Source: Elusimicrobiota bacterium
Lineage (GTDB): Bacteria; Elusimicrobiota; Elusimicrobia; UBA1565
Assembly: GCA_041661185.1 (NCBI GenBank)
Contig: JBAZUV010000004.1
Coordinates: forward strand, 85,002-149,001
Reading direction: 5' to 3'
DNA: 64,000 nt
Shown here: piece by piece, positions 33,987 through 34,226 of the stretch
Layout: each line of letters begins with the position of its first letter
How positions within the stretch are numbered: the stretch's first letter is position 1
The notes under the pieces: model-generated
What the model was told of the DNA's origin: nothing
Databases searched by the model: none
Seen by the model: only the letters and a program-made list of their open reading frames with translations
Position numbers and translations under genes: made by a program

Positions 33987-34226
33987 CTGGATTCCGGGCC
34001 AAGCCCGCAATGACGACCAGCTTGCACCGCAATGACGAATCGGCCGTCATCCCGCGGAAGCCGGTGCGTCCGTCATCCCGGCGAAAACCGGTGCATCCGT
34101 CATTCCGGCGAAAACCGGTGCATCCGTCATTCCGGCGAAAGCCGGAATCCAGCCTGCGGCAGCTCCTGGGTCCCGGCTTTCGCCGGAATGACGGACCTGC
34201 CCCGGCTTTCGCCGGAACGACGAATG
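33987..34226. repeat. GC-rich hairpin repeat cluster D, the largest (about 8 units including three near-identical tandem copies)
   Basis: ...ccgtcatcccggcgaaaaccggtgcatccgtcattccggcgaaaaccggtgcatccgtcattccggcgaaagccggaatccag...gggtcccggctttcgccggaatgacg. Confidence 0.8.

Follow-up and report, generated by a model that had tools for sequence, protein, structure and literature searches.

Hairpin repeats of the CGTC-1 class in an Elusimicrobiota genome and a candidate cognate GIY-YIG nuclease

In the present study, a 64,000-nucleotide stretch of an Elusimicrobiota bacterium contig (JBAZUV010000004.1, positions 85,002 to 149,001; assembly GCA_041661185.1), referred to below as the window, was analysed for a 28-nt hairpin repeat of which about 24 copies or fragments are spread over six clusters. 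We interpret these repeats as selfish, non-autonomous DNA hairpins of the CGTC-1 class of repetitive extragenic palindromes (REPs), for which a small GIY-YIG nuclease encoded in other genomes is the candidate cognate enzyme; we consider this interpretation as a whole to be about 85% probable. CGTC units are physically associated with the GIY-YIG gene family in other genomes, and there is about an even chance that the 96-residue nuclease is indeed the cognate enzyme of the repeats.

The repeat unit and its class

The unit consists of a CGTC tag, a stem arm (ATTCCGGC), a GAAA loop, the opposite stem arm (GCCGGAAT) and a CCAG tail. As single-stranded DNA, either strand of the consensus folds with its arms paired over 8 bp around a loop of 4 nt (-9.0 and -8.8 kcal/mol, z about -4.3), and the stem variants ATC.., ACC.. 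and GCC.. are matched by compensating changes in the opposite arm. Several copies in the window have A·C as their first stem pair. The preliminary description of the window, made from its sequence, had given a unit of about 27 nt with a stem of 5-6 bp, both of which are too short.

The six clusters of that description were all recovered. The 14-nt core CCGGCGAAAGCCGG, with at most two mismatches, matches the window 23 times against 2.67 expected, a count attained in none of 100 shuffles; the full 27-mer with up to three mismatches is found four times against 0 expected; and the head motif CGTCATYSC occurs 19 times against 3.5 expected, 17 of the 19 lying within the six clusters. An nhmmer profile built from 14 clear units returned all 14 at E < 1e-4, together with about ten further truncated or degenerate copies in the same clusters. 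The CGTC tag is present in all 14 full units found by regular expression, although the expression also allowed TGTC, CCTC and TCTC; the tag is degenerate in a single full unit, at 11049 (CCCC), which nhmmer alone recovered. The CCAG tail follows the stem in eight of the 14 full units, and CCTAG or CCAT in two others. Besides GAAA, the window units carry the loops GGAA and GGAG and a CGAAAACCGG form, as had been described. A minority have a 5-nt CTTGA or CTTGG loop and are CGTC-2-like (33987-34015, 45372-45399 and a relic near 45288); the CTTGA loop of the unit at 45372-45399 is that of Sphingobium and Novosphingobium units. When translated in the three forward frames, the unit reads RHSGESRNP, VIPAKAGIQ and SFRRKPES.

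The copies are arranged as a singleton (63907-63934), as inverted pairs with the tags outside (head-to-head, HH), and as mosaics with truncated head-to-tail copies and bare CGTCAT heads. HH pairs are present in four clusters (5296/5346, 11049/11083, 34125/34166 and 45339/45423) and give rise to long hairpins, the best of which (34123-34195) has -35.2 kcal/mol and z = -9.7 on either strand. The HH dimer of cluster 1 and its 22-nt spacer are 85% identical to 45390-45451 in cluster 5 (repeat family D5), which indicates that the dimer was copied and not the unit alone. The three tandem copies that had been noted are genuine and occupy 34045-34125 with a period of 27 nt; none of them has the 3' arm, and one canonical unit comes after them. 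Both orientations, which the earlier description had also mentioned, are seen side by side within each cluster. The copies are as follows.

Cluster 1, 5262-5289, minus strand: full unit CGTCATCCCGGCGAAAGCCGGGACCTAG (nhmmer E=2.6e-8)
Cluster 1, 5296-5323, plus strand: full unit CGTCGCCCCGGCGAAAGCCGGGGTCCAG, HH dimer with 5346-5373 across a 22-nt spacer (-32.5 kcal/mol, z = -7.1)
Cluster 1, 5346-5373, minus strand: full unit (nhmmer E=6.8e-8)
Cluster 1, 5376-5403 and 5406-5433, minus strand: two degenerate units that keep the CGTCATT head (nhmmer E about 1; head motif; direct-repeat family D10)
Cluster 2, 11027-11054, plus strand: truncated unit overlapping the next unit (nhmmer E=0.027)
Cluster 2, 11049-11076, plus strand: full unit with degenerate tag (nhmmer E=7.5e-6)
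Cluster 2, 11083-11110, minus strand: full unit with GGAA loop, HH dimer with 11049-11076 across a 6-nt spacer (-22.7 kcal/mol, z = -4.7)
Cluster 2, 11116-11143, minus strand: full unit with GGAA loop (nhmmer E=1.3e-7)
Cluster 3, minus strand: head fragment 24771-24781, full unit 24782-24809 and degenerate unit 24822-24849 (nhmmer)
Cluster 4, 33987-34015, minus strand: variant unit with 5-nt loop, CGTCATTGCGGGCTTGGCCCGGAATCCAG (generic hairpin detector)
Cluster 4, 34018-34037, minus strand: head fragment (head motif)
Cluster 4, 34045-34071, 34071-34098 and 34098-34125, plus strand: three head-to-tail units without 3' arm, 27-nt period (nhmmer E=4.7e-3, 8.8e-7 and 5.4e-7)
Cluster 4, 34125-34152, plus strand: canonical unit CGTCATTCCGGCGAAAGCCGGAATCCAG, 0 mismatches to the consensus, HH dimer with 34166-34193 across a 13-nt spacer
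Cluster 4, 34166-34193 and 34195-34222, minus strand: two inverted units (nhmmer E=2.3e-8 and 1.7e-6)
Cluster 5, about 45288-45310, plus strand: relic with CTTGA loop (generic detector)
Cluster 5, 45313-45340, plus strand: truncated unit (nhmmer)
Cluster 5, 45339-45366, plus strand: full unit with GGAG loop (nhmmer)
Cluster 5, 45372-45399, plus strand: variant unit with CTTGA loop (CGTC-2-like), CGTCTCCCTGGGCTTGACCCGGGGTCCAG (generic detector)
Cluster 5, 45423-45450, minus strand: full unit with GGAA loop (nhmmer E=1.4e-7)
Cluster 6, 63907-63934, plus strand: lone full unit (nhmmer E=6.1e-8)

These repeats are almost certainly CGTC-1 REP elements (Di Nocera 2013), which are defined by an unpaired CGTC tag (TGTC or CCTC being tolerated), 8-bp stems starting with A-T pairs, 4-nt loops and a CCA tail (PMC3733652). 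In that survey, HH dimers with the tags outside predominate among CGTC repeats, which lie mainly between unidirectional or convergent open reading frames (ORFs) and often touch ORF ends (PMC3733652). The superfamily is stated to "lack a dedicated transposase", and no tyrosine transposase gene was flanked by CGTC repeats, though many CGTC hosts encode such enzymes (PMC3733652). The window units have the same tag, 8-bp stem, 4-nt loop, CCA tail and HH dimers, are dispersed, extragenic and multicopy without a flanking transposase, and overlap ORF ends. They also share the VIPAKAGI peptide, which the supplement of the survey gives, with SFPRKRES, for CGTC-1 inserts in Rickettsia proteins (PMC3733652). 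The earlier label of a family resembling REPs or miniature inverted-repeat transposable elements (MITEs) was thus correct, and can be narrowed to the CGTC-1 class. Three differences from the published elements were noted: Elusimicrobiota lie outside the five host phyla given for CGTC repeats (PMC3733652); clusters were called rare in 2013, whereas five of the six sites here are multi-unit and include head-to-tail arrays of truncated units; and the first stem pair is A·C in many copies.

Neisseria repeats are counted among CGTC-1 in the survey, and intragenic CGTC repeats of R. conorii are equated there with RPE-4 and RPE-6 (PMC3733652). The Neisseria dRS3/NIME and Rickettsia RPE-4/RPE-6 repeats differ from those of the window in stem sequence and base composition, and the rickettsial copies are often intragenic and translated. 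We take the CGTC-1 repeats of Neisseria to be dRS3.

Distribution, covariation and gene context

A scan with the pattern CGTCRYYCCGGCGRARGCCGGRRYCCAG, limited to one genome per species, yielded at least 120 loci. Their hosts are found among the Chloroflexota and Dehalococcoidia, the alpha-, beta-, gamma- and delta-proteobacteria, Acidimicrobiia, Gemmatimonadales (Gemmatimonadota), Verrucomicrobiia (Verrucomicrobia), Bacteroidota, Bipolaricaulota and Elusimicrobia, and include one metagenome-assembled genome (MAG) of the Bathyarchaeota. The motif is therefore clearly not confined to the window, and this outcome, which in the preliminary description would have refuted its reading, does not apply; the known host range of CGTC REPs extends to Elusimicrobiota, and the same 28-mer is shared by far more phyla than the five published. 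As three stem positions per arm were left free in the pattern (R or Y) and complementarity was not imposed, the loci allow a fair test of covariation, with the following pair counts.

Stem pair 1: A-T 110, G-C 8, A·C 18, G·T 2 (Fisher p = 2.0e-5)
Stem pair 2: T-A 103, C-G 34, other 1 (Fisher p = 1.5e-31)
Stem pair 3: T-A 79, C-G 58, other 1 (Fisher p = 1.4e-38)

Such covariation implies that the hairpin is either under selection or faithfully copied. Pairs of the G·T type, which would be G·U-compatible in RNA, are nearly absent at the covarying positions 2 and 3 (1/138 at each). Adjacent units in other genomes have their tags outside in 37 cases and inside in one.

The MetRS encoded in the window is 100% identical to a protein assigned to an Elusimicrobiota MAG, with next relatives that all belong to Elusimicrobia, and the DNA of the window matches ENA metagenome contigs. 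In a related Elusimicrobiota MAG, whose MetRS is 74% identical, 21.5 kb of partly syntenic DNA, among it the stretch downstream of metG, contains zero real units, and the 10 kb flanking the window on each side yielded no extra ones. Several short-read contigs from other samples that carry genes of the window end inside units (L217, L123 and L124, the latter two inside 63907-63934), as expected for a multicopy repeat that breaks assemblies. Occurrence in many phyla combined with absence from a syntenic relative fits mobile DNA, and we regard a mobile origin of the repeats at the DNA level as likely.

Some units elsewhere are nested in other palindromes. In eight Desulfobacterota loci (L013, L026, L039, L044, L071, L091, L096 and L113), CGTC-1 dimers lie within an outer inverted repeat TTCGTAAAAAGTC ... 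GACTTTTTACGAA, and in Syntrophales elements bearing the GIY-YIG gene are enclosed by another outer palindrome, ATAAGCGCTAAC ... GTTAGCGCTTAT. This nesting suggests insertion into palindromic targets, or larger composite elements.

Within the window, the clusters have the following neighbours.

Cluster 1: HAD hydrolase gene, then aldolase gene, co-directional
Cluster 2: GT2 glycosyltransferase gene and CsgG-like gene, convergent
Cluster 3: gene with a weak Fervidolysin-prodomain Pfam match and asnB, convergent
Cluster 4: rplU (start about 33870, minus strand) and nrdJ (start 34642), divergent
Cluster 5: metG and AbiEii-like gene, convergent
Cluster 6: FG-GAP-repeat gene (62526-63875), then PBP1-type gene starting about 63974, co-directional

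All six dispersed sites lie outside the Pfam-supported parts of the flanking genes, while intergenic DNA makes up about 12% of a 21.5-kb gene-called stretch. Three ORFs extend into repeats past their Pfam domains, i.e. those of the HAD hydrolase (4584-5471), GT2 (10014-11141) and AsnB (24811-26787). Neither a transposase gene nor an integrase or prophage adjoins any of the clusters.

The foremost alternative is that the repeats are host-selected RNA elements, i.e. GNRA-capped hairpins in 3' untranslated regions (UTRs) that block exonucleases, terminate transcription or bind a protein, and that have spread through this function. A gene 3' end does adjoin five of the six clusters; among 75 classifiable unit groups in other genomes, as judged with a crude gene caller, 46 are unidirectional, 18 convergent and 11 divergent, so that 64 of the 75 are unidirectional or convergent; the loops GAAA, GAAG, GGAA and GGAG are of the appropriate type; and many REPs have been argued to be transcribed (PMC3733652). 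The location at gene 3' ends or between convergent genes, proposed in the preliminary description, thus stands for most sites, but not for the cluster it singled out (33987-34226), since this largest cluster lies between the divergent rplU and nrdJ, in a promoter region.

Strand symmetry is difficult to reconcile with such an RNA element. Singletons between co-directional genes elsewhere are in sense orientation in 17 cases and antisense in 16, so that in half of them the RNA loop would be UUUC and not GAAA. Together with the mixed orientations within the window clusters, this argues against a strand-specific RNA signal and favours recognition of a DNA hairpin or cruciform. The scarcity of G·U-compatible pairs and the syntenic relative without any units likewise speak against the RNA explanation.

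Canonical units have CCAG after the hairpin and no T-run, and a simple terminator scan fits only the variant at 33983-34006 (minus strand). Reading the units as Rho-independent terminators was rejected on this ground. At cluster 2, a separate, ordinary terminator-like hairpin with A/T-rich flanks, GGCCCGGCCGAAGCCGGGCC, is present at 11178-11210, between the repeats and the stop codon of the CsgG-like gene, and the repeats are therefore not required as terminator there. An Rfam search of the window at gathering thresholds returned two tRNAs only, and an E-value search at cluster 4 only generic hairpin models below threshold, such as miRNA precursors. The earlier suggestion of a possible RNA-level element thus finds no support as far as a strand-specific GNRA hairpin is concerned, and we consider a primary role as RNA improbable. 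Present effects of the window copies, i.e. hairpins in 3' UTRs and repeat-encoded tails on the three extended ORFs, are probably incidental.

A small GIY-YIG gene flanked by CGTC units

Clustering of the ORFs from the 120 repeat-bearing loci yielded one small meaningful cluster, which consists of GIY-YIG proteins of about 100 residues. The clustering covers families that recur in two or more loci, with names given to the largest clusters alone; the large clusters were set aside as generic superfamilies (ABC transporters, short-chain dehydrogenases/reductases, histidine kinases and acyl-CoA dehydrogenases). In a Syntrophobacteraceae locus (L094), the unit CGTCATTCCGGCGCAAGCCGGAATCCAG is followed by 9 nt, the ATG of a 96-codon ORF ending in TGA, 1 nt and an inverted unit. 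The same layout is found in Arenimonas (L101) around a gene for a 61%-identical protein. In general, the element consists of a unit, about 9 nt, the ORF, 0-3 nt and an inverted unit, about 355 bp overall, a spacing that would leave no obvious room for a promoter of its own.

For an assessment independent of the repeats, 80 metagenome loci were picked by peptide patterns inside the GIY-YIG core, derived from an alignment of nine sequences, and were searched with a generic detector that asks for [CT]GTC, an 8-bp stem in which 7 or more positions pair, a loop of 3-7 nt and a following CC, and that finds 12 units in the window against 1.4 per 64 kb in shuffles. In 48 of 77 loci the 150 nt upstream of the start contain a same-sense unit (mode -37, binomial p = 1e-78), and in 51 of 69 the 150 nt downstream of the stop contain an inverted one (mode +3, binomial p = 1e-89). 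At distances above 500 nt from the gene, the same loci have a background of 0.116 units per kb, corresponding to about 0.9% expected per search window and orientation. Several of the apparent misses are units with nested insertions or CGTC types with long loops. The left and right stems agree at 7.46 of 8 positions within an element, compared to 6.28 of 8 between elements (permutation p <= 1e-4). In 32 of 40 loci the gene upstream has the same orientation as the nuclease gene (p = 9e-5), which fits a promoterless element expressed by read-through and would explain residence at gene 3' ends.

Repeat-encoded peptides (VIPA[KEQN]AGIQ, SFRRKPESR, RHSGESR and LDSGFRRND) could be recognized in mis-called N- and C-terminal extensions of the proteins. 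Among 20 N-extended close homologues they were matched by regular expression in 17, and variant forms were seen by eye in the other three; more distant nuclease homologues have extension peptides of other CGTC variants.

In three loci (L125 2905-2965 and 3291-3335, L135 and L147), some of the flanking units carry another small hairpin or CGTC-like unit in their own loop, i.e. a repeat has inserted into a repeat. A more distant small GIY-YIG gene, in Novosphingobium (L095 2540-3020), has palindromic repeats of another kind, GGCTTCGACAAGCTCAGCCTGAGCGG, on its flanks. More than one repeat superfamily may be paired with small GIY-YIG genes.

The protein is a stand-alone GIY-YIG domain of 96 residues (Pfam PF01541, E = 7.8e-17). 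Eight residues are invariant in 53 diverse sequences (Y8, G16, Y19, G21, R29, H33, E66 and N85), and of these Y8, Y19, R29, H33, E66 and N85 are the likely catalytic residues. The family is large, with at least 7,997 matches in a word-indexed search and 13,685 clusters at 50% identity in an exhaustive one (E <= 1e-3); NCBIfam has no model specific to the 96-residue protein. An AlphaFold model has medium confidence (pLDDT 74.5), and a Foldseek search against the PDB gave nothing below E = 0.018; the best match, 1ZG2 (UPF0213 BH0048), which is also the best relative of known structure, adds nothing beyond the sequence match. YhbQ and YazA have been grouped with Slx1 and treated among the structure-selective nucleases (review, PMC7017083), and structure selectivity as in the Slx1 family fits recognition of a hairpin or cruciform. 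The 96-residue protein differs from these relatives and from homing GIY-YIG enzymes in that it has neither the zinc finger of Slx1 nor the separate DNA-binding domain of I-TevI/Seg. In a Caulobacter genome paper, three small COG2827 genes were interpreted as repair genes.

In a tblastn search against PLSDB, the gene was found in Neisseria, Azospirillum lipoferum 4B, Sinorhizobium, Rhizobium, Shinella, Sphingobium, Novosphingobium aromaticivorans, Aeromonas, Planktothrix and Spirosoma, several of which are CGTC host species listed by Di Nocera 2013. CGTC-type units flank the gene in nine of the ten cultured-host loci read, Photobacterium not being clear. In Azospirillum, Neisseria and N. aromaticivorans the flanking variant fits the CGTC family published for the host; by our own reading of the flanks it is CGTC-2-like in Sphingobium and CGTC-3-like in Rhizobium and S. 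meliloti. The flanks are as follows.

A. lipoferum 4B: CGTC-1 HH dimers on either side of the gene, between sufB and sufC
N. gonorrhoeae: units with ATTCCCGC stems around the GIY-YIG homologue
N. aromaticivorans and Sphingobium: CGTC-2-type units with CTTGA loops, the stop codon abutting the inverted unit or lying within about 6 nt of it
Rhizobium: units with 9-bp stems and CTTGA loop (CGTC-3-like)
S. meliloti: CCTC-tagged units
Aeromonas caviae: unit with ATTCCCGC stem about 55 nt upstream, and a second, poorly tagged unit downstream
Spirosoma and Planktothrix: TGTC-tagged units

As sufB and sufC otherwise form a conserved operon, the A. lipoferum locus offers a convenient natural site for a comparison of filled and empty states.

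Proposed mode of spread and remaining features of the window

We propose that CGTC units spread as selfish, non-autonomous DNA into non-coding sites, mostly past gene 3' ends, and that the Watson-Crick hairpin itself would be the selected feature on either strand, being recognized by a trans-acting protein as folded single-stranded DNA or as a cruciform. If the GIY-YIG nuclease is this protein, it might nick or cut at the junction of tag and hairpin, after which repair or copying would spread units and dimers; alternatively, the nuclease gene might home into empty dimers. A MITE would have a longer autonomous relative with the same termini; elements bearing the gene between such termini exist in other genomes, and none was found in the approximately 84 kb comprising the window and 10 kb on each side. 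The window copies would accordingly be orphans with no nuclease gene in reach, either dispersed non-autonomous products or targets of such an enzyme. Different nuclease lineages may pair with their own stem and loop variants (CGTC-1, -2, -3 and others), forming an analogue of the RAYT-REPIN system (REP-associated tyrosine transposases with REP doublets that form hairpins) on an unrelated fold.

The literature found names no enzyme that mobilises CGTC repeats and provides no link between GIY-YIG genes and REPs, although an earlier description is still possible as the search was incomplete. That the GIY-YIG nuclease makes, moves or maintains the repeats, and that this role is so far undescribed, is in our estimate a serious possibility with odds slightly below even.

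Several points weigh against the proposal. No GIY-YIG homologue could be detected by tblastn or hidden Markov model searches in the same 84 kb, and the link to the nuclease therefore rests on other genomes. The spacers of empty dimers have, by eye, no clear relic of a nuclease ORF, so that the dimers cannot be shown to be deletion derivatives, and no target-site duplication, as a MITE should have, was seen when the flanks of dimers and gene-bearing elements were read by eye. Two exact nuclease sequences that were looked up each occur in one genomic context across many samples, which indicates a stable, low-copy gene that is not visibly jumping. To our knowledge, no GIY-YIG enzyme acts as a transposase in prokaryotes. 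The nuclease could also be parasitic, homing into repeats that owe their spread to another agent, and a host-level RNA role, such as stabilisation of 3' ends, may exist as a secondary effect.

The stable, low-copy behaviour of the nuclease gene resembles that of RAYTs. The RAYT, as the proposed partner of REPs and REPINs, is a low-copy gene flanked by the repeats that it recognizes, and the GIY-YIG gene shows the same layout with CGTC units; the gene itself belongs to the unrelated GIY-YIG superfamily, in which it differs from REPIN-RAYT systems. A second alternative, suggested in the preliminary description, is that the window repeats are classical REPs or REPINs and that their mobilising enzyme is a RAYT (a Y1 HUH transposase) with its gene in another part of the genome. 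Their anatomy is like that of the GTAG REPs and REPINs of E. coli, where they form bacterial interspersed mosaic elements (BIMEs), and of Pseudomonas: a tagged short hairpin, inverted dimers that fold into long hairpins, mosaic clusters and an extragenic location, and only part of the genome was searched here. The tag, however, is CGTC and not GT[AG]G, the stem sequences differ, and no associated Y1 HUH transposase was found among the genes checked. The 2013 survey came to the same negative result for tyrosine transposase genes flanked by CGTC repeats. No Y1_Tnp match was found in the 84 kb, a check that is incomplete as it comprises Pfam hits for about 59 kb and selected ORFs, with 11838-33726 partly scanned. 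Furthermore, apart from generic superfamilies, GIY-YIG was the only recurrent family near the repeats in the ORF clustering described above. A RAYT as the mobilising enzyme is therefore very unlikely.

Least probable of all is that the units are non-mobile target sites of another recombination system (an IS110-/Piv-like integrase as at Neisseria dRS3, an IS91-type Y2 enzyme or Xer): filamentous prophages do use Neisseria dRS3 repeats as integration sites, and the window does encode a 96-residue fragment of an IS91-type Y2_Tnp (50282-50572, minus strand), but the distance from this fragment to the nearest unit is 4.8 kb and no units flank it, no integrase or prophage stands beside any cluster, and being a target would not alone explain the multicopy spread, the copying of dimers with their spacer and the distribution across phyla. 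For the same reason, being neither adjacent to nor flanked by units, the Y2_Tnp fragment was rejected as a partner enzyme.

Taken alone, the feature in the window is ordinary, as it belongs to an already known class of selfish palindromic repeat and only the host phylum is new. It is relevant to annotation, as CGTC units cause false ORF extensions, break short-read assemblies and could pass for regulatory RNA. If the nuclease is the cognate enzyme, the question of what spreads CGTC REPs, open since 2013, becomes directly testable, and a biological context would emerge for a very abundant family whose only annotation is "GIY-YIG nuclease family protein".

The window contains several further features. 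The Y2_Tnp fragment belongs to a region of accessory genes (45461-50572) that is absent from the syntenic region of the related Elusimicrobiota MAG (L215), and which also includes an AbiEii-like nucleotidyltransferase gene (45461-45946, minus strand) and an AAA_14/DUF4143 ATPase gene (48981-50150). A gene for a 1037-residue PDDEXK_1 (AddB-like) protein (50830-53943) has an internal duplication with an offset of 1269 nt (repeat families D8-D12 and D17). Two ORFs without Pfam match contain internal repeats: at least 13 head-to-tail copies of a 45-nt unit (15 residues) at 16373-17182 lie inside the ORF 16081-17337 (minus strand), and four copies of a GCTGCGGC-containing unit with a period of about 93 nt at 23243-23554 in the ORF 23038-23697. 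By coordinate mapping, the window spans two ENA contigs, the right-hand one of which starts near 16.8 kb, within the 45-nt array. Finally, a full-length comM-like Mg-chelatase gene (289-1836) has an inverted partial copy of 233 nt at 3658-3890, and a Schlafen/AlbA_2-HATPase_c_4 gene (1934-3838, minus strand) is located between the two, an arrangement that resembles an island inserted at comM; immediately to the left of the window there is a Wadjet/JetABCD operon (L216 3204-9819).

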